A stretch of DNA of 64,000 nucleotides from a virus. Its lineage: Duplodnaviria; Caudoviricetes. A program made the position numbers and the translations under genes. The stretch spans positions 6,057-70,056 of the IMG/VR virus record IMGVR_UViG_3300028832_000135; one strand, 5' to 3'. Below are positions 3,754 through 19,352 of the stretch, in pieces; position 1 is the stretch's first letter, and each line of letters begins with the position of its first letter. Under the pieces are notes generated by a model. It had not been told where the DNA came from and made no database searches. It saw nothing but the letters and a program-made list of their open reading frames with translations.

Positions 3754-4123
3754 TCTTATATCTCTCCTTTATTATCCGCTCTACCTCTTTCGCAAACTCA
3801 TCACGCTTGGTCTGCATTGCTACCTGGTCCCATTTTGCGGTCGCTAACGGGTGTACCTCGGTCTTATGATGAAACTCCTCGCCATAATATTGCTTTTGTG
3901 CATATTCTGACTCATAAACGACTTCAACCCCGCCTGATGTTGCGGAGGTGTAGTAGGAGATGTCCTGTGACAATTTACCTGTGTCGTAGGGAACCCACGG
4001 GTCAACTATCTTTGCAAAGGTCTGTCCAATGTCCCAATTTAACCCGGTAGTCCACACATTCGTGTTCCATATCTTGTCGCCAATGGTATGTTCATTGATA
4101 TTGACATCTATCTTAATGCTCAT
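3746..4123 (-). CDS. Neck protein (minor capsid-2-like)
   Basis: PWVPYDTGKLSQ...YAQKQYYG...HPLATAKWD pattern; synteny. Confidence 0.7.
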   Translation of the reverse strand: MSIKIDVNINEHTIGDKIWNTNVWTTGLNWDIGQTFAKIVDPWVPYDTGKLSQDISYYTSATSGGVEVVYESEYAQKQYYGEEFHHKTEVHPLATAKWDQVAMQTKRDEFAKEVERIIKERYKNG

Positions 4124-4554
4124 AAACCCCTCACAAGATAATGTTCATCGTTTCGACCACCGCCAACATTTATTTTACACTCGGTTATCTGTGCACATCT
4201 CGCTTTATACTTCTTAAGCAAGTCGGTTGACTTAGTTCCGCTTGAATACTCATCAATGGCATCGGAAACTTCGCCCTTAACAAGAATGTCGCCCTCATTA
4301 AAGGTGAAGTGGGTTGCTTTTGCGTCTGACGCTTGCCATACATAATCCTCAAGAAAGTTATCACTTACTCGAACACGGCAAAGCAACACTTTTGTCATCT
4401 GCGTTGCGTTCTCTTCACGGGTATAGTTGGTTTCATATCCCCAAAAACACCCCTCAAGAACCGTTCTGTACCAAGTTATCTCACCTTTACTATCCTCGTA
4501 TCTGTTATACAAGGTAACGGTCGTATTCCACCAAGTAGGATAGTTATTACTCAC
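4120..4554 (-). CDS. Head closure protein
   Basis: TVTLYN...WYRTVLEGCFW...GDILVKG...EHYLVRG; synteny. Confidence 0.65.
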   Translation of the reverse strand: MSNNYPTWWNTTVTLYNRYEDSKGEITWYRTVLEGCFWGYETNYTREENATQMTKVLLCRVRVSDNFLEDYVWQASDAKATHFTFNEGDILVKGEVSDAIDEYSSGTKSTDLLKKYKARCAQITECKINVGGGRNDEHYLVRGL

Positions 4555-4999
4555 CGGGATATAACCCCCTATAAAGCAATTTTCGTCCTAACTCATTGGT
4601 AACGCCTTGCAGGTAACGTTGAATTGTCTGTCCGATTTCCTGGGACAAAAGTGATGTAGCATCACGGGCAGCGAGAGAATTGTAACTGACTGATACTCCG
4701 TCATTGGATTGACTCATAATAGACTTCAAAATATCTCCTGAAGATGACACCTCTGAGTTATCCACAGAAATACCAAAAGCCGATAAGCGTTCTTGAATAA
4801 ACTTAATTAAGTAAACTTCGCAACGCTTAACGGCATCGGGTATATTCGTATTATTATGAAGTCGGTTGAAAGTGTACCAATCAATGTAACTTTCGGCCTC
4901 ATAAGCATAGTAATTGAACTCGGCTTCACTCAATGTGCCTCCGACCATCTGATATTCTGCAAATGTTAAATACCTCGGAGTCATATCCATTGATGTCAC
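4547..4999 (-). CDS. Head-tail connector (adaptor)
   Basis: YLTFAEYQ...AESYIDWYTFNR...SQSNDGVSVSY...LLYRG pattern. Confidence 0.75.
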   Translation of the reverse strand: MTSMDMTPRYLTFAEYQMVGGTLSEAEFNYYAYEAESYIDWYTFNRLHNNTNIPDAVKRCEVYLIKFIQERLSAFGISVDNSEVSSSGDILKSIMSQSNDGVSVSYNSLAARDATSLLSQEIGQTIQRYLQGVTNELGRKLLYRGLYPGE

Positions 5000-5378: not shown

Positions 5379-6683
5379 TCAAGAACCGTAGCCGAGTGTA
5401 ATGATTTCGCCCAACTGATAATCCTTGATGATTGTGTCTGTGCCGTTTGTAGCAACAACACGGAGAACCTGCTCGCCCTTGTCTGTAATCTTGAATACAG
5501 AGTCAAGGTCATCAAGATGTCCGATGAGTTCCTGCATACCTGCACCCTGTGTGGGGAGAAGACCAACCTTAACAGATGTGTACTGTGCCCAGTTTGCAGA
5601 CTCGAATGTGATTGCTACGAAGTTACCTGTACCCCAAACATCTGTGATTGCGTTAGAGCCATTGAGCCACTTGGAAGTACCTGTGATTGCGTCCTTACCT
5701 ACGGCAACACCGCTCTGAATGTCAGATACATTTACACCGTAAACCGTACCCTCTGTGAGAGCCTTAACAACGGGTGCAGAGAAAGCGTTACCAGAAGTAG
5801 CGTTGAACTGAATTGCACCAGCCTTGTTGTTAAGTACGAATACATCTTCAAAAGACTCCTCGTAGTAAATGTACTTACCCTCGGAACCAGCAGAAGGCTC
5901 ATCAAGTCTTGAGAATGTGTAGGAGACAGGTGTGAGAACTGCGATGGGGTGAACAAGGAACATATTGATTTGGAGAGCGTTGTCTGCGGGTGCCCAACCG
6001 TTTGTGAAATCATAGAGTGTTCTCATAAGAGGTGCGGGTACACCGATAATCTCAACCTCATCAAGTCTTGAAACGATACGGTTAATTCTCTTCTCACCGC
6101 CGTCAACCTCGATGTAACGAGAAATCTTCTCTGCGTTCTTGAGGATTGTCTTTACTTCGTGTGTAACATAGAGAATACGACCTGTTACCGGGACTCTTGC
6201 GTTATCCATATTGAGCATCAACTTGTCGAATACGGAAAGAACATTAGCCTCGGAAAGAACTGTTGTATCTGCTGTGTTGCCAAGAGCAACCCAATCGTTG
6301 TAAATCTTTGAAACACAGTAAGCGTCCATTTCAGGGAACTTCTGCTCTTCATTCATTACACGGGTAATGTTAGCGATTGTTGTGACCATATTGGTCTGGT
6401 CAACGTCCATAGGGTGAACAAGTGTTGACCACTTTCTCTCGTTTGTGAGAGTCTTTGTCTCCCAAGAGTTCGTGTAATTTCTCTGTGCAGTTGTGATTGT
6501 ATCTCTGTCTGCATCAACACGACCTGTTGTCTTGATAGACGGAATTTCGATTGTCTTTGCGTTTACCCAACGATATGTTCTGTTGTTAGGTGTTCTGTAA
6601 AGAGCACCGAAGTTAAGAACATAAGGGAAAGCCTGTGACAATGCTCTTGAATACTGCTTTGCGTAGTTAAGTGCCTGTGCCAT
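5379..6683 (-). CDS. Major capsid protein with ~135-aa C-terminal extension
   Basis: NYAKQYSRAL...TIEIPSI...WETKTLTNERKWSTLVHPMDVDQTN...QINMFLVHP pattern of A118-like MCP; follows scaffold. Confidence 0.9.
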   Translation of the reverse strand: MAQALNYAKQYSRALSQAFPYVLNFGALYRTPNNRTYRWVNAKTIEIPSIKTTGRVDADRDTITTAQRNYTNSWETKTLTNERKWSTLVHPMDVDQTNMVTTIANITRVMNEEQKFPEMDAYCVSKIYNDWVALGNTADTTVLSEANVLSVFDKLMLNMDNARVPVTGRILYVTHEVKTILKNAEKISRYIEVDGGEKRINRIVSRLDEVEIIGVPAPLMRTLYDFTNGWAPADNALQINMFLVHPIAVLTPVSYTFSRLDEPSAGSEGKYIYYEESFEDVFVLNNKAGAIQFNATSGNAFSAPVVKALTEGTVYGVNVSDIQSGVAVGKDAITGTSKWLNGSNAITDVWGTGNFVAITFESANWAQYTSVKVGLLPTQGAGMQELIGHLDDLDSVFKITDKGEQVLRVVATNGTDTIIKDYQLGEIITLGYGS

Positions 6684-6717: not shown

Positions 6718-7428
6718 TTATTCGTGTGCCCTCACGCCTACGAAGCCAAAGTCAAAGTCTGTGTCATCTGACTGGGGTGCTCCTGAAGTGGACGCTACGA
6801 ATGTAGGAATGGGGGCAATAGGCTCACTCGGTTCGGGTTCAACTTCGGGTTCGGGTTCTACGACAGGTTCGGGTTCTTTCTCAACATAGAAAGCGTCATC
6901 GTTTTCCTGTTCGTATGCCGTCTTGAAGTCATCTGCACCGATAAGTTTGTCGCCCTCCATTGTGAGATTTTTGTCAGTCATTGCCTTAACAAAATCTCTC
7001 TTTGCGGCCTTTGAAGTAAACTGTAAACCGTTTGCATACTCCCTTACCGCAAATTCATAGGACTGATGATGAAGTTTCTCCTCGTAACTCTTAGTATCGG
7101 CATCGTACTTTGCCTGTAAGTCACTCATCTGTGTGTTGAGTGCATCAAGTTTGGTCTTATCCTCACCTGCAAGTTCCAACTGTTTCTGTAGGTTGGCGAG
7201 GTCTTCATCACGGGTGGTAATTGTGCCATTCAAGGTTTCAACTTGTCCATTAAGTGTTTCAATCTGCTGATTAAGTCCCTTAATGTCACTATCGTACTTT
7301 GACTTACTTACATACTTTCCGTCAGAGAGGTCTGCAAACTTGAGTCCGTTCTCTTTGGCAAGTGCCTCGAATTGGTCATAGGTCAAAATACCGTTTTCCG
7401 CCTTGTCAAACAAATCTTTGATGTTCAT
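6718..7428 (-). CDS. Capsid scaffolding protein (phage GP20-like)
   Basis: GKYVSKSKYD followed by coiled coil; EPEP-rich acidic C-terminus; upstream of MCP. Confidence 0.85.
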   Translation of the reverse strand: MNIKDLFDKAENGILTYDQFEALAKENGLKFADLSDGKYVSKSKYDSDIKGLNQQIETLNGQVETLNGTITTRDEDLANLQKQLELAGEDKTKLDALNTQMSDLQAKYDADTKSYEEKLHHQSYEFAVREYANGLQFTSKAAKRDFVKAMTDKNLTMEGDKLIGADDFKTAYEQENDDAFYVEKEPEPVVEPEPEVEPEPSEPIAPIPTFVASTSGAPQSDDTDFDFGFVGVRAHE

Positions 7429-7720: not shown

Positions 7721-7748
7721 ATTATATCCTATTGATTATATAAATCAA
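7721..7748 (-). promoter_or_regulatory. Promoter TTGATT-16-TATAAT (late class, contains CAATAGGATATAAT)
   Basis: Read directly; -35 overlaps the portal stop codon. Confidence 0.6.
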
Positions 7749-9634
7749 GGGGTGACGGGTGTTTGAGTACCATTATTGGGATTGTTATTTCCTTGCATTT
7801 GTGGTACTGACTGACTCTGATTAGGTGCTTGTTGAGCGTTCTTTTGCTTACTATCTTGTTCGTCTTGTTTGCTCTCCTCACCCGGAGTTTCGCCACCCGA
7901 CACCTGCTTACCGAGTTGAGAAGACATAACCATATTCTGCTCAATAGCCTGTCTATTCTCATCTTGTATCTTATCAAGTGCCTCTTGTGCCTGTTTTTCA
8001 GTTTCACCAAAGTACCACATACGAAGTTCCAACTTGCTCTCAAGACCCTTTTCCATAAGAGAAAGTCTTGTTGCAAGCTCCGTTTCTTCATCTATGAGAA
8101 TACTATCGTCCCACTCAAATGAAACATCATAACTACCCATTTTCGAGGTGTCCACATTACCATTGGAGTCATATTTAATGTCACCAACGATATTATATAA
8201 TGTTACATACACATTCATTGCATAGATGACATCTTCCAATGCCGTCTGTAATGCACTCTGTATCTCCTTATTTGATGAGAAACTTCTCTGCTTGAGTATC
8301 TTAATCTCTGTTGCCGTCCTTGCCTCTGCGGCCACATCTGAAAGCGTGCCACGGCTTAATGCACACACATCTTCAATTCTCATAAGGATATTGTTGAGTC
8401 CGTTAATCAGTGAAATATCTCGCAGCGAGGGAGAGAATGGCTTGTAGGTGTCGGACTCACCCAGGTCGACCGGGCGGTACAATCTGTTCTGCAACTGACT
8501 CATCACCGAGCCGCCTTGGTCACCATTTAAGAATTGTAAAGCATCACGGTCAATGTCTATTGCGAGTTCACCACCCTCAAACTCCCAAAGAAGTCTTGAG
8601 TATTGCATATCTGCATCTTTAATAAGGTTTGCGGCCTTACCAAAACAACTCATTCCTAAAGGAGAATGGGTATCAATGATATTTGCATCGGGCATCTTAA
8701 AGTAACCAAACAAAAGTCTGTCAACATTCTTAATGGTTGCTTTAGGTGGTATGTCTTTCCATTCGGGCACATCTGTAAGTTTGATTTCAGAGCCGAGAGT
8801 AATCCCACCAATACCGCTATATGCCTCTTGGTTGTTGCTATTGGTACTCTCAAAAGCATAGTTTTCAATCATTACGTCATTGACATTTAATTTATGACGC
8901 TCAAGGCGTGTATAAATCTTATCACCTCTTGTGATTGTCTGAATGAAAGCAACATCTGTGAGATTACCAGAGCCGTCAAAAGAGAACGGATAAAAACAAT
9001 CCGCCTGAATGAAGTCATACTCCATTTTATATTGGTATTGTTCCTTTTCGTTCTTTTCTTTCTGCTTGCCGTCTTGCTTGTCTGTGGCAATTCCCGCAAC
9101 GCCCGTAACCTTAGAACGGACAACATAAGGCTTGATAATAAGACTTCCCTTTGCGGTGCCGTACTCTAATTGAGTGCGTATCTTTGAAAGCAACTTCTTA
9201 TGATATTGCTCATTAAGATATGTTGCCCTACGGGTATCACCCTGGACTTTTTCTTCAACGATTGTAGGTGCCTCGCCGCTTGCCCGGATATTTCCAAAAG
9301 CGTCACTTATCGGAGGAAAGTAGTTAGGATTGGTCTTTCTCTCTGTTTTAGTGGGTGCGGTAATCTCTGACTTCAACTCAAGTACCGCCATACGAGCCTT
9401 TTCACCCGAAATGAAAGCAGGTAGTCCCAATGAAACTACCCTTGTCTTGTCCTCTGCATCGGGTTCGTGTAACCACGGTGCATTGTCCATATACATATCC
9501 GTCCATAAATCTATGGCCTCTGTCATCTGGTCGCTCACCGCCGGGGTGACGTGCAAGGTTTCTTCGATTTTATGATTTAACCCAAACATTCTTGCAAAAA
9601 ACTCCTTTATCTTTGCCCAAAATGAGGAAAACAT
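7745..9634 (-). CDS. Portal protein (A118/SPP1-type)
   Basis: AIDLWTDMY...LGLPAFISGEKAR...SPLGMSCF...FDDS-like FEWDDSIL; Q/N-rich tail. Confidence 0.9.
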   Translation of the reverse strand: MFSSFWAKIKEFFARMFGLNHKIEETLHVTPAVSDQMTEAIDLWTDMYMDNAPWLHEPDAEDKTRVVSLGLPAFISGEKARMAVLELKSEITAPTKTERKTNPNYFPPISDAFGNIRASGEAPTIVEEKVQGDTRRATYLNEQYHKKLLSKIRTQLEYGTAKGSLIIKPYVVRSKVTGVAGIATDKQDGKQKEKNEKEQYQYKMEYDFIQADCFYPFSFDGSGNLTDVAFIQTITRGDKIYTRLERHKLNVNDVMIENYAFESTNSNNQEAYSGIGGITLGSEIKLTDVPEWKDIPPKATIKNVDRLLFGYFKMPDANIIDTHSPLGMSCFGKAANLIKDADMQYSRLLWEFEGGELAIDIDRDALQFLNGDQGGSVMSQLQNRLYRPVDLGESDTYKPFSPSLRDISLINGLNNILMRIEDVCALSRGTLSDVAAEARTATEIKILKQRSFSSNKEIQSALQTALEDVIYAMNVYVTLYNIVGDIKYDSNGNVDTSKMGSYDVSFEWDDSILIDEETELATRLSLMEKGLESKLELRMWYFGETEKQAQEALDKIQDENRQAIEQNMVMSSQLGKQVSGGETPGEESKQDEQDSKQKNAQQAPNQSQSVPQMQGNNNPNNGTQTPVTP

Positions 9635-9667
9635 CTAAACTCCTCCGCAATAATCATCTAAAATTCC

Positions 9668-10564
9668 TTAATCGAGGTGTTCTGCACCCCAAACACTCAA
9701 CCATTTACGGAGTCCTGATATTGCCTTATTAGAAAGACCCAATGTACTTATCGGTGACTTTCCTGGCAACCAAATGTAGGGTTCTCCATTCTTATTTTGG
9801 AACTGTATCTTATCCCAAACTTTATCTTCTGCATCACTTAACTTGTATGTATCGTTAAGAGCGGTAAGGATTGCATCTCTGTCAGCAATGTTAGTGCCCA
9901 TATTTATCTTTCTCGGCAACTTACCATTATTCTGCTTAAGATACTTCGTGAACTCACCCTTATATTTGTCAACCAACTCTTGCTTGCGTGTTTCATAATC
10001 GTTGACTTTCTTCTCAGCGTTAAGTTCTTTTTTCATCTGTTCGTGCTTGGCAATGTCTTTCTCTTGCTTGTCAACAAGGTCTTCTTGCTTACCTGAAGAC
10101 TTCTTGATTGCGTCTACGGCTTTCTGATAAGCCTCATAACCCCAATATTGCTCATTACCAGATGCCTTAAAGCCTTGCCACTTACCGTCAATCTTTGCAA
10201 CAAACGCACGGGGTTCGCTTGCGGGCATATGTTGACCAGTAATTGGAGAAAAATCCTCACCAACAGGGAGTATCTTGTGTCCGTCAACCTCTAATGGTAA
10301 TGTTTTTGTATCGTAATTCTCAACCCAGGCGGAAAACTTACCGTCTTTGGGTGTCTTCATTGTCATCTTACCGCCAACTTTGTTATACCAATGCTCGTAA
10401 AAAGCATAACGGTCATCAATTTCGTCAAGATGCGACTGCTCTTTTGAAGACTTCTTATTCTCTGCACTCTTAATAGCGTCCTTTAAGTCTTTGCCGTTTT
10501 CAATAAAAAGATGTCTGCCCTCAACTGTGACCCAACGACCTTGCTTACCATTAAATTCAGCCAT
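9668..10564 (-). CDS. Tag-A protein 4 (GRWVTVEGRHLFI), unknown C-terminal domains
   Basis: N-terminal motif shared with three upstream ORFs; SD AGGAG. Confidence 0.8.
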   Translation of the reverse strand: MAEFNGKQGRWVTVEGRHLFIENGKDLKDAIKSAENKKSSKEQSHLDEIDDRYAFYEHWYNKVGGKMTMKTPKDGKFSAWVENYDTKTLPLEVDGHKILPVGEDFSPITGQHMPASEPRAFVAKIDGKWQGFKASGNEQYWGYEAYQKAVDAIKKSSGKQEDLVDKQEKDIAKHEQMKKELNAEKKVNDYETRKQELVDKYKGEFTKYLKQNNGKLPRKINMGTNIADRDAILTALNDTYKLSDAEDKVWDKIQFQNKNGEPYIWLPGKSPISTLGLSNKAISGLRKWLSVWGAEHLD

Positions 10565-10569
10565 ATTGT

Positions 10570-10707
10570 TTATCTCCTCTTCTCTTTATATCCGCTCTTA
10601 CGGATAGCGGCACCTTGTTGCTCGGATTTTTTCCTTGCACCCTTACCGCAATATACCTTTTGGTTTCCCCATTGATAACAGTCTTTACCAACCTTATGAA
10701 CAGGCAT
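10570..10707 (-). CDS. 45-aa basic peptide MPVHKVGKDCYQWGNQKVYCGKGARKK...
   Basis: Manually translated; TAATG-coupled to the upstream ORF; below ORF-track cutoff. Confidence 0.7.
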   Translation of the reverse strand: MPVHKVGKDCYQWGNQKVYCGKGARKKSEQQGAAIRKSGYKEKRR

Positions 10708-10826
10708 TACTTCTTTTTCTCCTTATCCTCGGTATCTTCATACATCTTGGGAATGTAATACTTGCTCTCATCTATCGGCTTGGCAAGCAACTTATCAATC
10801 ATTTCTTGTGTTACTTTCTCTGCCAT
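10707..10826 (-). CDS. 39-aa charged peptide MAEKVTQEMIDKLLAKPIDESKYYIPKMYEDTEDKEKKK
   Basis: Manually translated; SD AAAGGAG; directly after the metallopeptidase gene. Confidence 0.65.
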   Translation of the reverse strand: MAEKVTQEMIDKLLAKPIDESKYYIPKMYEDTEDKEKKK

Positions 10827-10838
10827 ATCTGCTCTCCT

Positions 10839-11774
10839 TTACATATGCAATATCTTTACCAATTCTTGTGATAAAGGACTTGCCTTATCCCCATTGGCAA
10901 CATAGTCGGCAACCGCCTCCGCCATAAGTTCGTGATGACTTGTAGCAGCGTACCCGGAAATTGCAGTCGGGTGCTTGAATTTCGGGTTGGCATATCCGAG
11001 AACTCCGTGTTGTGGGGTGCTACCAAGTGCTTTCGTAAGTGCTTGATTTATCTCATTCTCAATGTACTTAGAAGTTGTACCACTTGCCTTGCCCTTACCT
11101 GATGACCACATCGTGACCTCAAGCATATCTGACAAATCGTGCTTTGTAAGTCTTCTGTTCATTCGTCCTATATGTTCAAAGAACATAATGTGCCCCAATT
11201 CGTGTGTAAGTATGTCTTTTGCCGTAGTGCCTTTAGGGTGATAATTGTTACTACCAGAAACGGATTGTGCATACATCTTCTGTAATTGAGGTTGATGCTT
11301 TGAGAATACAGGTGCATTGATATAAACATTATTCATATTGGCTTGAGCCATAGCAACACCAAAGATGCTACCGGGGTCGTTAAAAGAACCAACGCTCTTC
11401 AAGAACCTTAACTGTTGCGGATATTTCTGTTTCATTTCGGCAACGGTATTAAGAACCATATAGAGATTGGTCTTCGTGCAGATATTATCGTCTTCCGGGT
11501 CGAATGTAACCTTAACACCCGTATCTTGCTCAAACTGTTGTACGGCTTGAGTACGGGTGCCAATCTTACTGTAATCCTTGAAATTTGTAGCCAGGGTCGG
11601 TGTTGAGATTGCGTTGGCATAGTTGTGGTCAGCCGTGGCTACCTGTGTCTGGTGTCTACGCTCGGCAATTTCTCTTTCCTGCTTATCAACATCATCTTCC
11701 GCAATGAAGATATGCTTACCTTGCTTGGTTGTTATCCAATGTCCGTTTTTGTTATTGAAGTTAGCCATAATCAA
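10839..11774 (-). CDS. Tag-A protein 3 with zincin-like metallopeptidase domain
   Basis: THELGH (HExxH) plus ISGYA...ELMAEA third-ligand motif; N-terminal GHWITTKQGKHIFI. Confidence 0.8.
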   Translation of the reverse strand: MIMANFNNKNGHWITTKQGKHIFIAEDDVDKQEREIAERRHQTQVATADHNYANAISTPTLATNFKDYSKIGTRTQAVQQFEQDTGVKVTFDPEDDNICTKTNLYMVLNTVAEMKQKYPQQLRFLKSVGSFNDPGSIFGVAMAQANMNNVYINAPVFSKHQPQLQKMYAQSVSGSNNYHPKGTTAKDILTHELGHIMFFEHIGRMNRRLTKHDLSDMLEVTMWSSGKGKASGTTSKYIENEINQALTKALGSTPQHGVLGYANPKFKHPTAISGYAATSHHELMAEAVADYVANGDKASPLSQELVKILHM

Positions 11775-12289
11775 CCGTGCTCCCAGGGTGCTTTAACCTT
11801 TTTAGCAAGGTCAACATAGATTTCTCCCTTGTCTGCATAGGCACGAATAAATCTGAACGCCTGCTTATAATCTTTTTCTGAAAGATTATGGTCAAATGTC
11901 CAACCCCAATAGGTGCCCTCTCCGTCTTCATCTTGTTCCGGGACATTATACACAAAGTTAATGGGTACATTCTTTGTGTTTACCTCAATGCCTTTACCAT
12001 ATCCCCACTCTTCGTTGATTTCTTGCAACAAGTCAGATGGATATACATTATCCTCTCCGTCTTCATCGTGTTGCTTGTTCCACCACTTAATAAGGTCAGC
12101 GGTTTCCTTGTCATCAAGTTTGTCTTTCTTGACAATCTGCTCGGCTTTCTTCTCGTCTGTCAACTTTTTGGTTTGTTCCTCTTGAGCCTTAATCTCCTGC
12201 TCTTGCTTTTCCGTGGGGTCATCAGAGATAAAGATATGTCTTCCGTTAGATGTTACCCAACGACCCTCTTTACCATTATAAGTAGCCAT
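11771..12289 (-). CDS. Tag-A protein 2, acidic unknown C-terminal domain
   Basis: GRWVTSNGRHIFISDD...KQEQEI. Confidence 0.8.
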   Translation of the reverse strand: MATYNGKEGRWVTSNGRHIFISDDPTEKQEQEIKAQEEQTKKLTDEKKAEQIVKKDKLDDKETADLIKWWNKQHDEDGEDNVYPSDLLQEINEEWGYGKGIEVNTKNVPINFVYNVPEQDEDGEGTYWGWTFDHNLSEKDYKQAFRFIRAYADKGEIYVDLAKKVKAPWEHG

Positions 12290-12299
12290 TTCAATTACC

Positions 12300-13280
12300 T
12301 CACTTGATGTATTTCATAATGTCGTTAAGAACGGCATCACTTATTTTTCCGTCAATGACCCAGGTAAGTGCTTTAGCCAGGTCTCCCTTTGTAGCAATCT
12401 TCGCATCTCTCTTCCCGATAAATGCAAGGAACTTACAAGTCAGATTATAGTTAGCCTTGCCCGAAGTAATGCTATTTACCTCACTATCTGAAAAACCATT
12501 GGAAGATAAATCATCACTGACATATTGCCAACCGGGTATGCCGTCCTGCTCATCTCTACCAAACTCCGTCCACTCCTCTGTAAGTCCCTCAAGAGCCTGT
12601 TTTCCGAGTTCTTTTGCCTCTTTGGTCTTGGCATCGGTTGCCTTAATGTTCTCTATGGTCTTATTGAGTCCTTCTTTCTCGGCATTGATGTAATCATCAA
12701 CTGTTCCGTCATTGACTCCTCTTACCTTAAGGTCGCCATTAGCATCAAAATACTGTGTGCCTGTCTTCATCTTCTTAAAATCGGCAATTCTCTGCTTGGA
12801 CTGACGCTTTTCACGGTCAATCTGCTCATCAACCTCATTTTTAGACTTGAGTTCATTTTTTGCCTTTTTATTGGCATACTTTGTGATTTCGCTCTCATAA
12901 CGACCAGTATTTACATACCCATCGTGTATGATGTTATCAAGGCGGCGTTGTTCCTTTCTGACTTGTTCATAGGTTTCACCGCTATCTATGCCATACTTGT
13001 TAAATTGAGAAAGAAGTCTGTAAACCTCAACAGACTTATCGGTAAGTGACTCAAAATCACTATCTTTAGCCGATAAAACCTTTTTAGCGTCCTCGGCAAG
13101 TCCCTTGTAATAAGGGTTATTCTCAACAGGGTCAGTCTTTGTCTGTCTGCTCTGGTTATATTCACTTGCTCTCTTCTGTGACTCTGCGATTTCACGCTCT
13201 TGCTTTTCATTCTGGTCATCAGAAATAAAGATGTGCCTACCATTTACTGTGACCCAACGACCTTTTTCAGAATTACCCAT
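12300..13280 (-). CDS. Tag-A protein 1, helical unknown C-terminal domains
   Basis: GRWVTVNGRHIFISDD...KQEREIA. Confidence 0.8.
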   Translation of the reverse strand: MGNSEKGRWVTVNGRHIFISDDQNEKQEREIAESQKRASEYNQSRQTKTDPVENNPYYKGLAEDAKKVLSAKDSDFESLTDKSVEVYRLLSQFNKYGIDSGETYEQVRKEQRRLDNIIHDGYVNTGRYESEITKYANKKAKNELKSKNEVDEQIDREKRQSKQRIADFKKMKTGTQYFDANGDLKVRGVNDGTVDDYINAEKEGLNKTIENIKATDAKTKEAKELGKQALEGLTEEWTEFGRDEQDGIPGWQYVSDDLSSNGFSDSEVNSITSGKANYNLTCKFLAFIGKRDAKIATKGDLAKALTWVIDGKISDAVLNDIMKYIK

Positions 13281-13307: not shown

Positions 13308-13336
13308 AGTATATGCAAAACCAAAAAGAATGTCTA
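13308..13336 (-). promoter_or_regulatory. Promoter TAGACA-17-TATACT for tag-A array
   Basis: Read directly; followed by SD AAAGGAGG and the ATG at 13280. Confidence 0.6.
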
Positions 13337-13391: not shown

Positions 13392-13505
13392 TTACTTGTC
13401 ATTCTCTAATCGTTTTAGAGTTTCAAGTATTTCCGCTTTTGTTTTGCATTTTTCCACGATTGTTATGATAAATCGAAGAATGTCTGAAAACATTGCACTT
13501 CTCAT
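13392..13505 (-). CDS. 37-aa small helical protein MRSAMFSDILRFIITIVEKCK...
   Basis: Strong SD AAAGGGGGTG before the ATG at 13505; followed by a terminator. Confidence 0.6.
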   Translation of the reverse strand: MRSAMFSDILRFIITIVEKCKTKAEILETLKRLENDK

Positions 13506-13632
13506 AGTAATCACCCCCTTTCCTAAAGATTTAGCAAGGTGTGTCTTACTATGCTTATATTGTAACATTAGCAACTAATGATTACCTGATAATAATGGTA
13601 CTATTCAAATGTCGCTTGCGAGGCGACAAATA

Positions 13633-13666
13633 GAATACCGACACCCCAAACGGAATGTCGGTACTC
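13633..13666 (-). terminator. Terminator after HNH gene
   Basis: GAGTACCGACATTCC-GTTT-GGGGTGTCGGTATTC stem followed by TATTT. Confidence 0.6.
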
Positions 13667-13691: not shown

Positions 13692-14189
13692 TTAGTTTCC
13701 TTTTCTTCGTTGTCGCAAGGCTTTCATTTTACAGGCATTACAACAATACTTACTATTCTTATTAGTAAATCGGCTATATGCCTTATTACACATCTCACAT
13801 ACAAAGTGTCGTTCCGTTCGGTTATCCTTACGAGTTAGCACTTGATTTTTATGCCAAGCCTTACCCTCTTCTGACTTATGCCATTCTATCGCTTTCGGAA
13901 CGGCTTTAGTAACAACATTGTTTCGTTTCCACTCTCGCTCTTCCTCTGTAAGCAATTCACCGTGTAATCTCTTGTGTTCCGCTTTAGAGAGTAGTTGTAA
14001 ATTAGAGATGTTATTGTTTGCCCGGTTTCGGTCTATGTGATGAACCTCATACCCTTTAGGAATTTTGCCGTTATAATACTCCCAAACATATTTGTGCATA
14101 AGAATAGTCGTATGCCCAACGGAGTGCCGAAAATAATCATTAGGTTTAGTCTGATAAAATTGTATGCCATTAAATGTCTGGTATTCCAT
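13692..14189 (-). CDS. Free-standing HNH endonuclease with C-terminal Zn ribbon
   Basis: MHKYVWE...VHHIDRNRANNNISNLQLLSKAEHKRLH; CxxC...CxxxC; SD before MEYQ. Confidence 0.9.
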   Translation of the reverse strand: MEYQTFNGIQFYQTKPNDYFRHSVGHTTILMHKYVWEYYNGKIPKGYEVHHIDRNRANNNISNLQLLSKAEHKRLHGELLTEEEREWKRNNVVTKAVPKAIEWHKSEEGKAWHKNQVLTRKDNRTERHFVCEMCNKAYSRFTNKNSKYCCNACKMKALRQRRKGN

Positions 14190-14212
14190 AGATGTTTCCT
14201 CCTTACAGACAC

Positions 14213-14241
14213 ATAATAACAATCGTATCTAACTATGTCAA
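14213..14241 (-). promoter_or_regulatory. Promoter TTGACA-17-TATTAT for HNH gene
   Basis: -35 overlaps the terL TGA stop. Confidence 0.65.
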
Positions 14242-15530
14242 TTACCCTTTCGTGCCCAGTATTTTTGAAGTGCGTAACGAACGCAGTCGATGCTGTGGTT
14301 ATCCTTATCCGGGTAAGCACTGATGAAATTGCCGTCTTTGTCTTGCTCGTACTCATAGTTGGAAAACTCTTTCCAAGTGTAGGGACAAACCTTGCGGTCG
14401 ATATAGATGTGATTAAGTCCTTGCAACCACTTTATGCCGTATCTTACGCTTTCAGGTCCCTTTTCCGCGGGTCTTATGAACGCACCATACGCCTTAAAGT
14501 CGGCTACGGATTTCTGCTCTGCACTATCCGCAATTACGGCCTCGGCTCTGTCTACGAGTTGAAGTTCATCATACAATTCGTGGAATACTGTTTCATTTCT
14601 CTTAAGTAATGTGTTGTACTCCTTAAAGATATACACATCTAAATGCTTTGGGTCGAAGTGCATACGAACAAATCTGAACGGGTCTTGAGCAAAACCCCAG
14701 TCAATACCGTTATAGATTTGGTCGAATGTCTGCCACATCGGTTTTTCTCCTCCCGGTGCTTCCACCAGTGTAGTCGAGTCAAACTCTGCAACATTCGGAA
14801 ATACATCTCCGCCCGTACCGATAGCCAAGCCAAGATATTCGTGAACATATGCTCTCTCATTTCGCAGCTTGAGTTCATTGGCCTCTTCAAAGAATTGCTC
14901 TCCAAGCCATTGCGGGGGAACATCAAGATATGTGTTATGTGTTACGAGCGTATTCGGTCTGTCTTTAACATCATCTGAATACTCATTCGCCCAATTATTC
15001 TTTGAGATAGGCGGGTTGAAAGTCATAAAGTTCCAAAACTCATCTCCACCTCTCATTGTGGATTGCAAAACCTTACGGATTTCATTCTCACCCGCGAACT
15101 GGTCCAACTCCTCCCACCAGGTAATTCCAATATAGCCTTTCTCAACCTTAATGGATTTTACCTTGTTAGGGTCGTCCATACCCATAAAGATTATCTTCTG
15201 ACCCGTGGGCAAGTAGATAATAGGGTTGGAGTATGTCTTTGGTATCTTAAAGAAACTCGTCAAGCCTAACTTCTCAATACCCCAAACAACCTGTGAGTAG
15301 ATACTGTTCTGTATGGTATTTCCTACCTTACGGAAACACACGGCATTTACTTCCGGGTGAGTTATGATAAGCATAGGTATTGCAATGCCGCCATAAAAAG
15401 ACGATTTTGTAGAGCCTCTTCCACCCTCTCCGATATAGTGGACGTGCTTATGTTGCATAATATCCCTAAAGACTGGCTTATACATAGGGATAACGCAATC
15501 GTTTATTGGTATGTTTATCTTAAAGTCCAT
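14238..15530 (-). CDS. terL: Terminase large subunit, PBSX family
   Basis: Walker A GGRGSTKS; WWEELDQF; TFNPP; GIDWG; DNHSIDCVRYA. Confidence 0.97.
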   Translation of the reverse strand: MDFKINIPINDCVIPMYKPVFRDIMQHKHVHYIGEGGRGSTKSSFYGGIAIPMLIITHPEVNAVCFRKVGNTIQNSIYSQVVWGIEKLGLTSFFKIPKTYSNPIIYLPTGQKIIFMGMDDPNKVKSIKVEKGYIGITWWEELDQFAGENEIRKVLQSTMRGGDEFWNFMTFNPPISKNNWANEYSDDVKDRPNTLVTHNTYLDVPPQWLGEQFFEEANELKLRNERAYVHEYLGLAIGTGGDVFPNVAEFDSTTLVEAPGGEKPMWQTFDQIYNGIDWGFAQDPFRFVRMHFDPKHLDVYIFKEYNTLLKRNETVFHELYDELQLVDRAEAVIADSAEQKSVADFKAYGAFIRPAEKGPESVRYGIKWLQGLNHIYIDRKVCPYTWKEFSNYEYEQDKDGNFISAYPDKDNHSIDCVRYALQKYWARKGN

Positions 15531-15550: not shown

Positions 15551-16099
15551 TTAATCACTTACCTGTGGCTTGGTGTCAAATGCCTGCTGAATGGCTTGAG
15601 CGTCTATGCTCTCACCAACTTCTCCGACATTGGCACTTGCGTCTTCTCCCCAATCAACCGTGATGACCAACTTAGGCGGTTCTTTGCCCGCAACGTGGTC
15701 TTCCACATCAATGACTCTCTTGCATAGTTCCTGACAAGCCTTTGTTCTCTCCGAAAGACTTGCATCAAGTCCAAACTGGTCTTTCTCCTCCCCACGCATC
15801 ACCCTTGTAAGATATTCAAGAAGTTCATCTCGGCTTGCTATCTTATCATTTTTGTGAGATTGTAGCCTGAAATTTATTTCTTCGGTCATATACTCTTTCT
15901 TTAACAGCCTATTTCCGTATTGGTCTGGCTTTGTGGTTTCATAGCCTGCCTTTATTACGGATTGTCGGATATTACCCGATAGCATATATTCATCTATGAA
16001 TTTGGCCTCTTTCGGAGTTAAAGGGTGACCACTATGAGTAGAGAACTTTGTTTGTTTTCTACTTTGAGTTGTTTTCTTTTTAGACTTGTTTTCTGCCAT
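15551..16099 (-). CDS. terS: Terminase small subunit
   Basis: LTPKEAKFIDEY...QSVIKAGY; IASRDELLEYLTRVMRGE...ERTKA. Confidence 0.92.
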   Translation of the reverse strand: MAENKSKKKTTQSRKQTKFSTHSGHPLTPKEAKFIDEYMLSGNIRQSVIKAGYETTKPDQYGNRLLKKEYMTEEINFRLQSHKNDKIASRDELLEYLTRVMRGEEKDQFGLDASLSERTKACQELCKRVIDVEDHVAGKEPPKLVITVDWGEDASANVGEVGESIDAQAIQQAFDTKPQVSD

Positions 16100-16161: not shown

Positions 16162-16344
16162 TTAGATTTCGTCTAACGGCAATACATCATCAAGGATTTC
16201 TTGCACTTCTGCGTCAAACTCATCATTGTATGAGTTTGCCTCTGCAATAATCTCATCTGCTTTCTCTATGCCGTGAATGTCTGCCAATACCGCTCTTTCG
16301 GTATCTGCAAAATCATTATTTAGTATTTCAAAACCTCTTGCCAT
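16162..16344 (-). CDS. 60-aa highly acidic protein after JAB gene
   Basis: SD AAGAGG; D/E-rich. Confidence 0.7.
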   Translation of the reverse strand: MARGFEILNNDFADTERAVLADIHGIEKADEIIAEANSYNDEFDAEVQEILDDVLPLDEI

Positions 16345-16368
16345 AACCGTACCTCTTTTGTTATGTCA

Positions 16369-17034
16369 TCAATAGATGTTCTTTGCTTTTGTTGCCGTAT
16401 AAATAAAATCAAACTTGGCTAAGTTCTTCTTATACATTCTGTCAAATGCACCTACGGAGTATTGCCTTGCGTATCTTGTTGCCTGTGCTTGGCTCATAGG
16501 TCTTCTGTATGTGACTTTGCCTGTTCTTCTGTTTACCAACTTGACTTGTCCTTTATGCGGCCCGGACTTCAAAGGTGTAGTTGCCTGCTTATATGCTGAC
16601 TTGTAAGAGTTTGCAAAGTTCTGTTGCATTAACTTCTGATTTGTCTTTACCCACCTCTTGAGTCCGTCACGGTCTGCATTTTTACCAGCCTTAAGGCTAT
16701 AAGATTGTCCTTGCTCGGAATATGCCCTTATTTCACTCAAATTGGAGTCTGCAAACACCTTAAGGTCTTGCATTGAGAGCGTTCCGCCAAAGTCATTATC
16801 GGGGTGATTGTGTGTAAGGACGGCACCGTCAAGTTTGAGATAGCGGGGGTCAATGTGAACACTATGCTCATCTCCGACAAAACCAGTTACAGGCTCACCG
16901 CCTGCCGTAAAGAATGTTGCTTTTTCAACGGAACTATCGAGTCCGCCCCTTGTTGACTTCTCCCACTCTTCCAATGTACCCGTTACCGGGATTTGGTTGA
17001 ATGAGCCAACGGTAAGTATTCCACTTGAACCCAT
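16369..17034 (-). CDS. MGS-tag protein with JAB-like metalloprotease domain
   Basis: E...THNHP...TLSMQDL pattern (HxH...S..D) of JAB/MPN+ toxin-like domains. Confidence 0.75.
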   Translation of the reverse strand: MGSSGILTVGSFNQIPVTGTLEEWEKSTRGGLDSSVEKATFFTAGGEPVTGFVGDEHSVHIDPRYLKLDGAVLTHNHPDNDFGGTLSMQDLKVFADSNLSEIRAYSEQGQSYSLKAGKNADRDGLKRWVKTNQKLMQQNFANSYKSAYKQATTPLKSGPHKGQVKLVNRRTGKVTYRRPMSQAQATRYARQYSVGAFDRMYKKNLAKFDFIYTATKAKNIY

Positions 17035-17046
17035 ATGTCTGTCTCC

Positions 17047-17184
17047 TTACTTCTTTGTCTTCTTAACAGTGGCTTTCTTGGTCTTCTGTGATGCGGTCTT
17101 CTTCTTGATGTTTACACCGTCATTATAACTTCCCATAAAAGCCTTGATGCTATTTGAATTGAAACTCGGCTCCTTGTATGCCAT
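17047..17184 (-). CDS. 45-aa Lys-rich peptide MAYKEPSF...KKTASQKTKKATVKKTKK
   Basis: Manually translated; SD AAAGGAG. Confidence 0.7.
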   Translation of the reverse strand: MAYKEPSFNSNSIKAFMGSYNDGVNIKKKTASQKTKKATVKKTKK

Positions 17185-17196
17185 ATCTGTTCTCCT

Positions 17197-18036
17197 TTAC
17201 TGTTTGAGTACCAATGCACTTCTGTCGATTACATTGTAGTAATCACCATAACTGCCGTGAACTGATGACGGGCCGCTTGAGATTACATTGTAACCCATAC
17301 AAAGTGCATAAATGCTTAAGTTCTTGTTGTTTACGCTACCGATTGCGTTTGCCGTCTGAGGGTGTGACCTTGACCACGCTGAAATCTTCCTTTGAAGTGT
17401 GTACTTGTCGATAACTTTAGCGGTCTTCGGATTGAGTACGCCTTCCATTGTTGAAGAACTACTACCACCGCCATAACCTGTGCTACCGCCACCATTCATC
17501 TCAAAGTATGCACCTGAACCATATGCCGTACCACCGTGCTTACCGCCAATGTAATTAACTCGGCTATAACGGAGAATGTCATTGATGTCGTTACCAGAGA
17601 GACTTACCTTAGTGCCGTCTGCGTTATTGTAAGTAGTACCGCTAACCGTTCTTGCAATAACTTCCTTTTGTGGAATGTTATTGTCTTTCATAAATTGAGC
17701 AAATGACGCACTATCAAGTACCATCGGCTTTTCATTGAGTCCGATTTGGAACGCAAATGATTGTGTTACATCTCTGACATCTTTCAAGTGGTTAGGCATA
17801 TCCACATTTCTTGATGCAATGACTTGAGCAGCCATTTGAACGTCATTCATTGCCGTAAGAGCGTTGAGTGCATTACTCGTAACGGGAGTATTCTGTGCCG
17901 TAGGTGTCTGATTTTGAACTCCGGGATTGCCCGCATTTACAGGGGTTACGGTAGGCGTTGGTGCCGGGGGTACGACACGGGAAGTTGAAAATGTAGAACC
18001 ACCCGAATATCTTGTTGTTGAACCTGTGCTACCCAT
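17197..18036 (-). CDS. MGS-tag protein, probable PARP-like ADP-ribosyltransferase fold
   Basis: IART...GGTAYGSGAYF...STGYG...YYNVIDRSALV resembles the G..YG.G.YF signature; low-complexity P/T/N-rich N-terminus. Confidence 0.55.
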   Translation of the reverse strand: MGSTGSTTRYSGGSTFSTSRVVPPAPTPTVTPVNAGNPGVQNQTPTAQNTPVTSNALNALTAMNDVQMAAQVIASRNVDMPNHLKDVRDVTQSFAFQIGLNEKPMVLDSASFAQFMKDNNIPQKEVIARTVSGTTYNNADGTKVSLSGNDINDILRYSRVNYIGGKHGGTAYGSGAYFEMNGGGSTGYGGGSSSSTMEGVLNPKTAKVIDKYTLQRKISAWSRSHPQTANAIGSVNNKNLSIYALCMGYNVISSGPSSVHGSYGDYYNVIDRSALVLKQ

Positions 18037-18038
18037 TT

Positions 18039-18188
18039 TTACTTTCCTTTCTTACTTGCACTCTTGCCAGTAAAATACTTGCAAGGTGTATTAGGCTTAC
18101 CGAAAGCACCGTCACCCGCACTAAATCTGTCATAAGATGTGTCTGTGACCTTGTTTGCTTTCTTTTGTGTCTTCTTAGTAGTAGCCAT
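18039..18188 (-). CDS. 49-aa Lys-rich peptide MATTKKTQKKANK...SASKKGK
   Basis: Manually translated; SD AAAGGAGG. Confidence 0.7.
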   Translation of the reverse strand: MATTKKTQKKANKVTDTSYDRFSAGDGAFGKPNTPCKYFTGKSASKKGK

Positions 18189-18203
18189 TCTTATGTTCCT
18201 CCT

Positions 18204-19040
18204 TTAGAAAAATTCAATATCAAACTCGATTGCGGGATAAGATTGAGCACCCGACCTCTTCATTAAAACTCTGCCATTTGAGTCTTTTCTGAACCTTGCA
18301 CCAGTAATCCTGAAGTTCTGAGGATTTGCTACTGTAGCCGGGGCAAGTACCAACTCTCCAAGTTGTCCTCCCGGACCGTTACCGGGCATAAATCCTTGTG
18401 TCTTTGCGGGTGCCTTGATGTTGAGTTTTACCGCCTTATCGGTAAATGGATTATTGGCGGGAGCGTGTCTGAAATCATTATAAGATGTTGAAAGGAACTT
18501 CTGCAGGGAGTGTGTACTTCCAACAAACTTCTGCAAATCAGAGTCTTTGAGATTGCCGTAATTACTGTGATTGATGCTCAACCCCGCGTTCTTTGCAAAG
18601 TTGTCAATCAGACTTACACGACCATAGTGAGTAAGGGTCAAATTCTGTCCGAGGTTGTGTGAGCCGTCTAACAGAGATTGAGCCATATATTGCTGATTTG
18701 CCGTAAGAGGTTTGCCCTTTTCCATTGAATTGTTCAACTCCTGTGACGGACTATACATTGAACCCGCAACTGGTTGGTCGTGAAGATAGTCTTGTACCGC
18801 CAACTTTGTGTCGATGTTAAATGTCTGTGCCAAATAGTAATTTCTGCCACCGCCTGACAATTCGTGATACGGATTGGGGTCAGTGTCAGAGAATGTAGCG
18901 TTATTCGCTGACTGTGCTTGTTGTTGTGTCGCAACGATTGTCGGGTCTTGTCCGCCATTGTAACTTGCAATGGACGGTGTGACCCCGCTTGTTGCGGTTG
19001 TACCCGATGAATAACTTGTACGAGAACCTGTACTACCCAT
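18204..19040 (-). CDS. MGS-tag protein, VIP2/C2-like ADP-ribosyltransferase
   Basis: FLSTS motif, QLGELVL catalytic-Glu strand, FRITG; N-terminal helical bundle AVQDY...LNNSM. Confidence 0.75.
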   Translation of the reverse strand: MGSTGSRTSYSSGTTATSGVTPSIASYNGGQDPTIVATQQQAQSANNATFSDTDPNPYHELSGGGRNYYLAQTFNIDTKLAVQDYLHDQPVAGSMYSPSQELNNSMEKGKPLTANQQYMAQSLLDGSHNLGQNLTLTHYGRVSLIDNFAKNAGLSINHSNYGNLKDSDLQKFVGSTHSLQKFLSTSYNDFRHAPANNPFTDKAVKLNIKAPAKTQGFMPGNGPGGQLGELVLAPATVANPQNFRITGARFRKDSNGRVLMKRSGAQSYPAIEFDIEFF

Positions 19041-19046
19041 AGTCGT

Positions 19047-19352
19047 TTACTCCTGTAATTTTGCTCTGATTGCGTTCCATTTTTCATTGTCTGTCGGCAA
19101 TTCTCTGCCAGTTAGACTATACCACATATCCCTTAAGTAAAAAACGATGTGAAGTTGTGCGGGACTATTGAAAAGTTCTTGGTTGACCCATTTCCCTTTC
19201 TTACTATCCCATACCGCCTGCTTGATGTGATATATGGTAATCGGTCGGTCTTGTTGCTCGGAGTAAAATTGAGATGTTGAGTACATTATCCTTAACCCGT
19301 TCTGGTTTAAGGCTTGTTGGAGTTTATGGATTAACACGCTCTGACTCGGCAT
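19047..19352 (-). CDS. Hypothetical protein heading the late operon
   Basis: SD AGGAG; first ORF after the promoter. Confidence 0.7.
   Translation of the reverse strand: MPSQSVLIHKLQQALNQNGLRIMYSTSQFYSEQQDRPITIYHIKQAVWDSKKGKWVNQELFNSPAQLHIVFYLRDMWYSLTGRELPTDNEKWNAIRAKLQE

Follow-up and report, generated by a model that had tools for sequence, protein, structure and literature searches.

In phage T4, the internal proteins IPI-III and Alt share a short N-terminal leader, the capsid targeting sequence (CTS), and are packed in the head and injected; the CTS binds the scaffolding core and is removed by the gp21 prohead protease. Encapsulin cargo-loading peptides are short terminal peptides through which diverse cargo docks inside an HK97-fold shell, and they occur in terminal and repeated versions. 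Polyvalent proteins, encoded among virion and head morphogenesis genes, unite 2-15 effector domains of unrelated kinds in a single polypeptide chain (Iyer, Burroughs, Anand, de Souza, Aravind 2017, PMC5512222), and MuF polymorphic toxins join an N-terminal Phage_Mu_F domain (PF04233) to a variable C-terminal toxin, with a short open reading frame (ORF) behind it (Jamet et al. 2017, PMC5576092). The present analysis concerns an array of four genes, P1 to P4, located between the large terminase (terL) and portal genes of an uncultured gut phage of the Caudoviricetes (IMG/VR record IMGVR_UViG_3300028832_000135). The window, i.e. the whole stretch of DNA analysed, comprises 64,000 nucleotides and corresponds to bases 6057-70056 of a 70,056-bp record rated 100% complete. 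The products of the four genes open with a common leader, or tag, whose core is a predicted beta-hairpin. With about an even chance of being right, we propose that the array represents a polyvalent protein split into separate genes, in which each cargo would carry its own docking handle for capsid loading near the portal.

The leader resembles the T4 CTS in being short, N-terminal and shared by unrelated proteins, but it differs in that the hairpin also occurs internally and at C-termini in other proteins and in that the genome has no S78 or ClpP-type match. With the encapsulin peptides it shares a similar idea and no sequence relation. Like MuF toxins (PMC5576092), the array would combine a conserved trafficking part with a variable effector part beside the portal gene, and a small ORF follows one of its genes, that of the zincin; the putative trafficking part here, however, is a hairpin leader of ~25-45 residues instead of a MuF domain of ~110 residues, and the text of that article covered by keyword searches does not mention the motif, a linker or a junction. 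The likeness to polyvalent proteins (PMC5512222) lies in the head-module location and in tag-bearing relatives that carry MuF, ART-PolyVal, Zeta toxin, 2H/Acb1, zincin and LPD domains; moreover, the tag of the window is the repeated joint inside such proteins (2-6 internal sites), although keyword searches of that article return no mention of the hairpin motif. Unlike polyvalent proteins, the modules of the window are separate genes, each with its own leader and none with MuF, and they lack the multi-domain make-up (one domain each in P2 and P3, two function-unassigned segments each in P1 and P4). The module is absent from Pfam, PHROGs and NCBIfam. Its kind is already known: effector cargo encoded in head modules, polyvalent proteins, and internal proteins with a leader tag.

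A hairpin leader shared by four otherwise unrelated proteins

The original prediction described four consecutive genes with a common N-terminal module of ~40 residues. All four ORFs exist on the minus strand with aligned starts and belong to the same array, but they are not strictly consecutive, since two micro-ORFs interrupt the series between P3 and P4, and terL is separated from P1 by an HNH gene. The core of the tag in P1-P4 is G-[RH]-W-[VI]-T-x(2-3)-G-[RK]-H-[IL]-F-I, and ten columns are invariant over the first 45 residues (M1, N3, G7, W9, T11, G14, H16, F18, I19 and K26). Read in six frames, the sequence matches a strict regular expression for the hairpin exactly four times, once at each of the four ORF starts, against 0.0 per shuffle in 200 shuffled sequences, and no fifth copy is present in the whole 70-kb genome. 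In P1-P3 the hairpin is followed by (D/E)KQE(R/Q)EI(A/K), hereafter motif B. The N-terminus of P4 has the hairpin alone: there it is followed by the short helix GKDLKDAIKSA, and motif B (DKQEKDIAKHE) stands at residues 163-176, behind an insertion of ~125 residues.

Two independent AlphaFold2 models, of P3 from 16 sequences (predicted local distance difference test, pLDDT, 79) and of P4 from 10 sequences (pLDDT 65), agree on three short strands (residues 2-4, 7-14 and 17-23) that are followed by a helix, with a low-confidence linker between it and the cargo. In P1-P3 a long helix enriched in E, K, R and Q comes after the hairpin; in P4, motif B begins a 50-residue helix (162-211). The leader is accordingly modelled as a small beta-meander spanning residues ~2-23, with the hairpin as its core, continued by a charged helix (motif B) and a flexible linker. 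Across relatives only the hairpin is invariant, with G, W and G present in every small protein and T and F in more than 90%. Its histidine can be replaced by K, R or P and is therefore not catalytic. With residues alternating, one face carries V/I/V/I and the opposite face W/T/H/F, which suggests a surface built for packing against a partner.

Ten isolated tags match no family in Pfam, PHROGs or NCBIfam, and the tag profile gives chance-level matches only against PDB sequences. DUF5678 matches P4 alone, at 13.9-15.1 bits (E 0.02-0.05) and thus below its gathering cut-off of 23.2, and gives nothing with the nine other tags. A role as a DNA-binding domain is rejected on the acidic flanks and the lack of a family match, an intein/Hint motif on the T-to-H spacing, which differs, and on the non-invariant histidine, and a membrane-spanning hairpin on strands of just 4-5 residues.

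Beyond the tag, P1-P4 are unrelated to each other, as had been predicted. None of them belongs to a family in Pfam, PHROGs or NCBIfam (sub-threshold matches are limited to DUF5678 for P4 and Reprolysin_5 for P3), and PDB sequence searches with P1, P2 and P3 return chance-level matches only. Fold searches with the P4 model are dominated by its long helix, with no credible match in BFVD, and an ESM Atlas search gave nothing usable. The domains of P1, P2 and P4 matched nothing in these searches, and these three members stay without an assigned function, as originally described.

Breadth of the tag among proteins and phages

When compared with 1.84 billion representative proteins, a profile built from the four tags matches 202 clusters at E<=1e-3, of which 35 reach E<=1e-10. 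About a quarter of the matches are polyvalent phage proteins of 800-2400 residues. P0049 is a repetitive false positive and was set aside. Among the best 150 matches, 104 are shorter than 500 residues, and nearly all of these have the tag at residue 1. N-terminal copies keep the register MAEFNGKxG[RH]W, with the tryptophan at residue 11 in 58 of 96. The C-termini of the small proteins include Gln_amidase, ADPrib_exo_Tox, Amidase_6, LPD11, topoisomerase IB, ParB_C and GNAT, and most have no family at all. The search, which the original prediction had envisaged, thus yields hundreds of otherwise unrelated tag-headed proteins; the tag is not a known DNA-binding domain with fixed C-termini, since no Pfam, PHROG or NCBIfam family covers it and the C-termini are diverse.

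Large proteins of 500-2440 residues make up 45 of the best 150 matches and contain 2-6 internal copies of the tag, spaced by a median of 254 residues (range 105-1072). Pfam searches on 44 of them identify MuF (9 proteins), ART-PolyVal (6), Acb1 (5), Zeta_toxin (4) and ADPrib_exo_Tox (4), and 2H/LigT, ATLF, LPD1, LPD3, portal, S78 and DUF2213 domains are also found. At the DNA level, the hairpin pattern is present in 35 viral contigs of IMG/VR from many environments. Of ten large tag-bearing ORFs scanned from this source, six encode portal proteins, five of the PF04860 type and one of the PF05136 type, in which the tag comes 50-200 residues after the portal domain; others are a DUF2213-tag-cargo protein, a protein with Zeta_toxin and a PI3/4-kinase-like domain, and a histidine phosphatase. 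The N-terminal DNA pattern MAxFNGKxG[RH]W[VI]T has no match in IMG/VR or GTDB genomes, a word-indexed protein search with the tag region finds close relatives only, and a literal search of the literature for the tag strings returns nothing but noise.

Sequence beyond the hairpin differs between subfamilies of tag-bearing proteins (P0024, P0088, P0109, P0114, P0126; L029). In one subfamily the hairpin continues into a second conserved motif, G-x-[VI]-x-K-G-P-x-x-L, and in others into x-[DE]-G-[EQ]-[ST]-x-x-x-A-[IL]. A lysine-rich micro-protein of 50 residues (L009:7628-7780) has a degenerate hairpin near its C-terminus (...KKDERWVTVNGKHMIVKKEKKRK).

A location in the head or packaging module is found in every phage example opened (the window, L005, L006, L009, L011, L014, L015 and L171-L173). 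Polyvalent proteins adjoin terminase and portal in L014 and L015, and unrelated standalone tag genes lie after an SPP1-type portal in L171, between terL and portal in L172, and directly before scaffold and capsid genes in L173. In L171 (8001-10527), the SPP1-type portal gene encodes just 328 residues and a hairpin-led gene of 508 residues starts 13 bases further on, an arrangement that may represent a split portal or a portal-cargo fission.

Cargo shuffling and interchangeable leaders

A detailed comparison is provided by the related phage L006, whose terL, capsid protein, scaffold and portal are 91%, 93%, 88% and 80% identical to those of the window. Its array differs from that of the window and encodes products of 256, 252, 179, 308, 38, 293 and 144 residues. 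Between paired genes of the two phages, identity is 60-88% over the first 40 residues and 27-45% over the remainder, the exception being the zincin, with 72% identity outside the tag. P1 is a chimera of the N-half of the L006 gene for 252 residues and the C-half of that for 256 residues. Members of the P4 family differ in a cassette that separates hairpin and motif B and exists in two or more unrelated versions: P0013 lacks the cassette of P4, P0005 has a different insert, and P0169 has motif B ahead of the cassette and no C-domain. These rearrangements and the breadth of the tag strongly support the earlier description of a polymorphic effector array in the head module, with a common tag and swappable cargo. 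The tag-coding DNA itself forms repeats of 74-87 nucleotides with 73-76% identity, which could serve as substrates for cassette exchange.

Further arrays vary in size and content. In the 88-kb relative L011, eight hairpin-tagged genes, two genes led by MGSTG or MGGVG and four lysine-rich micro-ORFs form one run that ends at the portal, while in the 16-kb locus L005 a P3-type zincin is the sole tagged gene found. P4 is the hairpin-tagged gene closest to the portal in the window, where it is the final gene ahead of it, and also in L011; in L006 one MGSTG-led gene intervenes. For a structural or adaptor role, P4 is the leading candidate. We propose that P3 and P4 are conserved core members of the array and that P1 and P2 are variable cargo.

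The leader can be replaced. P0165 (L009:7783-8571), a homologue of the P3 zincin with 58% identity, starts with MGSTGASKSSS... instead of the hairpin leader, and MGSTG is also the leader of a second array of the window (16162-19352). An MGSTG-led gene sits last ahead of the portal in L006. That a single type of cargo occurs with two unrelated leaders, and a single array with both, argues for a requirement for a leader in itself, and to judge by their sequence contexts the MGSTG/MGGVG and hairpin leaders appear functionally equivalent. MGSTG- or MGGVG-led genes stand beside hairpin-tagged ones at L006:10894-11328 and at L011:6713-7426 and 9097-9816.

The P3 zincin and its small neighbours

The one member of the array described as an HExxH zincin is upheld by both motif and fold. 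P3 has HELGH at residues 187-191 and a conserved HELMAEAV helix near residues 279-286, and E190, E280 and E284 are invariant across 16 P3 homologues. Its AlphaFold2 model superimposes on the catalytic domain of anthrax lethal factor (LF; residues 561-771) with a VIA Z of 10.9 and a root mean square deviation of 4.1 A over 176 aligned residues, and on PPEP-1/3 with a VIA Z of 7.8, the next zincins reaching at most 6.6. Foldseek pairs P3 with PPEP-1 at a probability of 0.99, yet with an E of just 9e-3. Like members of peptidase family M34 (anthrax LF; C. difficile PPEP-1/Zmp1), P3 combines HExxH with a downstream helix glutamate in the same catalytic-domain fold, and by its modelled fold and active-site motif it is an M34-like gluzincin. 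Unlike them, it is phage-borne behind a cargo leader and has no match to Pfam ATLF (PF07737) at E<=0.1, the only Pfam match being Reprolysin_5 at E 0.023; its identity to M34 structures is 11-16%.

A P3-type zincin occurs in every related array examined, and in all four phages a 38-42-residue ORF with a lysine-rich tail follows the zincin gene, whichever leader the zincin has (Table 1). This micro-ORF is a candidate cognate partner of P3, possibly an inhibitor. The other micro-ORF of the window, basic and of 45 residues, has a 47-residue homologue in the array of L011 (L011:9940-10083) and is absent from L006; the conserved pattern of the pair is MPVHKVGKDCYQWG...KGA.KK...QG.AI.KSGYKEK.

A proposed docking handle for capsid cargo

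Taken together, the presence of the tag beside capsid-interior anchors in other phages, its fixed N-terminal register, the exchange of leaders and the head-module location favour a loading or docking handle over the other readings, and by the logic of gene fusion the tag-portal proteins designate the portal region as the likeliest dock. In such a system, the array would be a hypervariable island of cargo genes within the head-assembly operon, with one shared N-terminal leader. With the hairpin as docking handle, each cargo would be drawn into the procapsid at the portal or close to it, and the motif B helix and the linker would hold the cargo off the dock. The cargo would then leave together with the DNA and act soon after reaching the infected cell, while the conserved tag-coding DNA would provide a cassette-exchange junction that keeps the repertoire polymorphic. 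For packaging by the tag and injection of the cargo against host defence, as first suggested from the sequence, relatives in which the tag is fused to portal, MuF or prohead-protease-like domains and to Acb1 or ART cargo offer indirect support, and this may hold for the window.

MuF (PF04233) has no match in the complete 70-kb genome and none in P1-P4, and the two prohead-protease types searched, Peptidase_S78 and CLP_protease, have no match in the genome. Neither the usual MuF carrier nor a tag-and-cut scheme with a prohead protease is therefore evident here, and a different loading route is needed in a genome without MuF, if the cargo is packaged at all.

Hairpins on bacterial chromosomes and alternative readings

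A hairpin pattern applied to the GTDB species genomes (596 Gb) gives at least 120 loci, which is about the chance expectation (~120 by calculation), so that only matches with a hidden Markov model (HMM) E<1e-6 and conserved flanks are counted. With a broader tag HMM, 58 GTDB loci fall below 1e-6. In 55 GTDB loci the hairpin is the extreme C-terminus of the ORF, in the form ...G-[KRH]-W-V-T-I-N-G-N-H-V-F-I-E-[DK]-stop. Ten tag-bearing GTDB ORFs were scanned; nine end in the hairpin, Lipase_3, GH108 muramidase, SLT and DUF6973 proteins among them, and the tenth is a CHAP protein with an internal tag. Hairpin-ending chromosomal proteins are heavily enriched in Gastranaerophilales (Melainabacteria); five such genomes hold 1-3 hairpin copies each, and one of the five has an HK97-type portal. 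Example loci are L114:2336-3388 and 4121-4930, L051, L054, L059, L072, L080, L109 and ~50 others in GTDB, whose products end in ...GRWVTINGNHVFIE[DK]-stop.

Several of these and other observations weigh against the docking handle. The hairpin-ending effectors lie in ordinary chromosomal surroundings, next to genes for small lipoproteins or multi-pass membrane proteins, and judged from sequence they look, with their neighbours, like an effector-immunity family. VipB of the type VI secretion system (T6SS), Phage_sheath_1 and VirB4 have no match in any of the five tag-bearing bacterial genomes. As the hairpin is present on chromosomal bacterial effectors, capsid loading cannot be its only role, and its common denominator may be the delivery of conflict effectors in general. 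On the phage side, a docking handle seems redundant within portal or MuF fusions, and the tag reaches a pLDDT of just 70-80 in the models. In the cultured-phage database, neither the array nor P1 nor the polyvalent P0024 has a match at the DNA or protein level, and phiC2 and phiCDKH02 have no tag copy in the 8-19 kb of each that cover the head module.

The chromosomal copies lend themselves to another reading, in which the hairpin is no capsid address and instead acts as a general, position-independent handle, one that keeps effector modules fit to pass a narrow conduit (a phage tail or a bacterial export route) or recruits a ubiquitous chaperone. Its occurrence at N-termini, internally and at extreme C-termini suits such a handle, as do the C-terminal copies on envelope-targeting effectors, which lie outside any phage context and have no evident signal peptide, and the missing VipB, Phage_sheath_1 and VirB4 matches. 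Each strand moreover joins a basic residue to a hydrophobic run (RWVTI, RHVFI), a pattern that we take to resemble Hsp70-type binding sites. A location signal nevertheless accounts at least equally well for the phage copies, which are strongly tied to portal, MuF, protease and head modules, and we consider the general handle unlikely. A low probability is likewise given to an extended form of it, in which the 13-residue hairpin would be a universal position-independent handle for delivery out of the producing entity, loading phage cargo at the portal for co-injection and serving in Melainabacteria and other bacteria as an export signal that takes lipase and muramidase effectors along an undescribed route.

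Proteolysis offers a further possibility. The tag could mark junctions at which a protease, i.e. the P3 zincin here and a prohead protease elsewhere, separates the modules, standalone genes keeping the motif as the mature N-terminus. It punctuates polyproteins at domain-sized intervals and separates portal or protease domains from cargo that, if uncut, would be left tethered; a P3-type zincin, moreover, is found in every related array examined and is the one tagged gene found in the L005 locus, and the article on polyvalent proteins already proposes that metallopeptidase domains process them (Iyer et al. 2017, PMC5512222). A compact beta-hairpin is, however, a poor protease substrate, HExxH is present in just 13 of the 45 large tag-bearing proteins, and the genome lacks an S78 or ClpP-type prohead protease match. 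The conserved N-terminal register and the swap with an unrelated leader also favour a function at the terminus itself, which makes cleavage at the tag rather doubtful.

Still other readings dispense with an address function. The tag might be a junction without trafficking, either a linker that favours recombination or insulates folding or a homotypic module that bundles cargo. The repeats in the tag-coding DNA would fit, as would chimeric genes that break at or near tags and at motif B. Conservation is nonetheless found at the protein level, across diverse phages and bacteria of differing codon usage, and it is the hydrophobic hairpin that is kept and the adjoining linker that varies, the opposite of what a mere spacer would show; such a junction is improbable. 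Finally, the four could be paralogous minor head proteins, DNA-binding or structural, that have an N-terminal domain in common and whose function is essentially fixed. The head-module position and the weak DUF5678 match of P4 only would suit this reading, which is very improbable in view of C-termini that are unrelated and, in relatives, enzymatic (Gln_amidase, ART, GNAT, TopoIB, zincin), and of a tag with acidic flanks and no DNA-binding family match.

Genome setting of the array

All genes around the array are on the minus strand and follow one another in the transcription order small terminase, large terminase, HNH, four tagged genes, portal, scaffold and major capsid protein (Table 1). The capsid protein is 57-66% identical to those of the Clostridioides difficile phages phiC2, CDMH1 and phiCDKH02, and strong AGGAGG-type ribosome sites are present; a Bacillota host would fit both features. 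The ORF list extends P3 beyond its ATG to a TTG at 11774. The promoter of its own that the original prediction assigned to the array is not supported by comparison with shuffled sequence: a sigma-70-like match is present, yet 12 such matches are found in the region against 11.2 expected from shuffles. A 60-residue ORF (13392-13574) lies within the 400-bp gap between the HNH gene and P1.

Table 1. Features of the tagged array and its surroundings, in window coordinates unless a locus is named
Feature	Position	Strand	Remarks
Small terminase	15551-16099	-	
Large terminase (terL)	14238-15530	-	Terminase_3, E 2e-35
HNH endonuclease	13692-14222	-	HNH_3, E 2.7e-18; between terL and P1
Terminator-like hairpin	13633-13666	-	after HNH gene, precedes promoter match
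Sigma-70-like promoter match TAGACA-17-TATACT	13308-13336	-	10/12 match, upstream of P1; statistically unsupported
P1, 326 aa	12300-13280	-	tag and two cargo domains, residues ~45-160 and 213-326
P1 hairpin core GRWVTVNGRHIFI	13224-13262	-	strict regular expression
P2, 172 aa	11771-12289	-	tag, ER/K-rich predicted helix, small acidic cargo domain
P2 hairpin core GRWVTSNGRHIFI	12227-12265	-	strict regular expression
P3, 309 aa	10839-11768 (from ATG)	-	tag, disordered linker, M34-like gluzincin domain (predicted)
P3 hairpin core GHWITTKQGKHIFI	11703-11744	-	strict regular expression
39-aa micro-ORF, lysine-rich tail	10707-10826	-	directly after P3 zincin gene
45-aa basic micro-ORF	10570-10707	-	MPVHKVGKDCYQWGN...
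P4, 298 aa	9668-10564	-	hairpin, short helix, ~125-aa swappable insert, motif B, C-domain ~200-298
P4 hairpin core GRWVTVEGRHLFI	10502-10540	-	strict regular expression
P4 displaced motif B EDLVDKQEKDIAKHEQMKKELNAEKK	9995-10078	-	
Portal protein	7745-9634	-	phrog_533, E 4e-102; candidate docking partner
Scaffold	6718-7428	-	
Major capsid protein	5379-6683	-	
Zincin-trailing micro-ORFs	window 10707-10826; L006:9883-9999; L011:8969-9097; L009:8609-8737		

Significance for phage and bacterial effectors

Which phage proteins travel in the capsid and enter the cell with the DNA is mostly unknown beyond a few model phages, and enzymes of early counter-defence are among them. If the docking handle is correct, a short recognisable label would predict capsid cargo from sequence alone, explain how effectors are loaded in phages without MuF and provide a handle for packing chosen proteins into capsids. 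If the hairpin were a universal handle, sequence would directly reveal injected or exported effectors in different phyla, and foreign proteins would become loadable into capsids. The chromosomal copies, which occur where no known injection system is found, hint at a broader, undescribed principle of trafficking.

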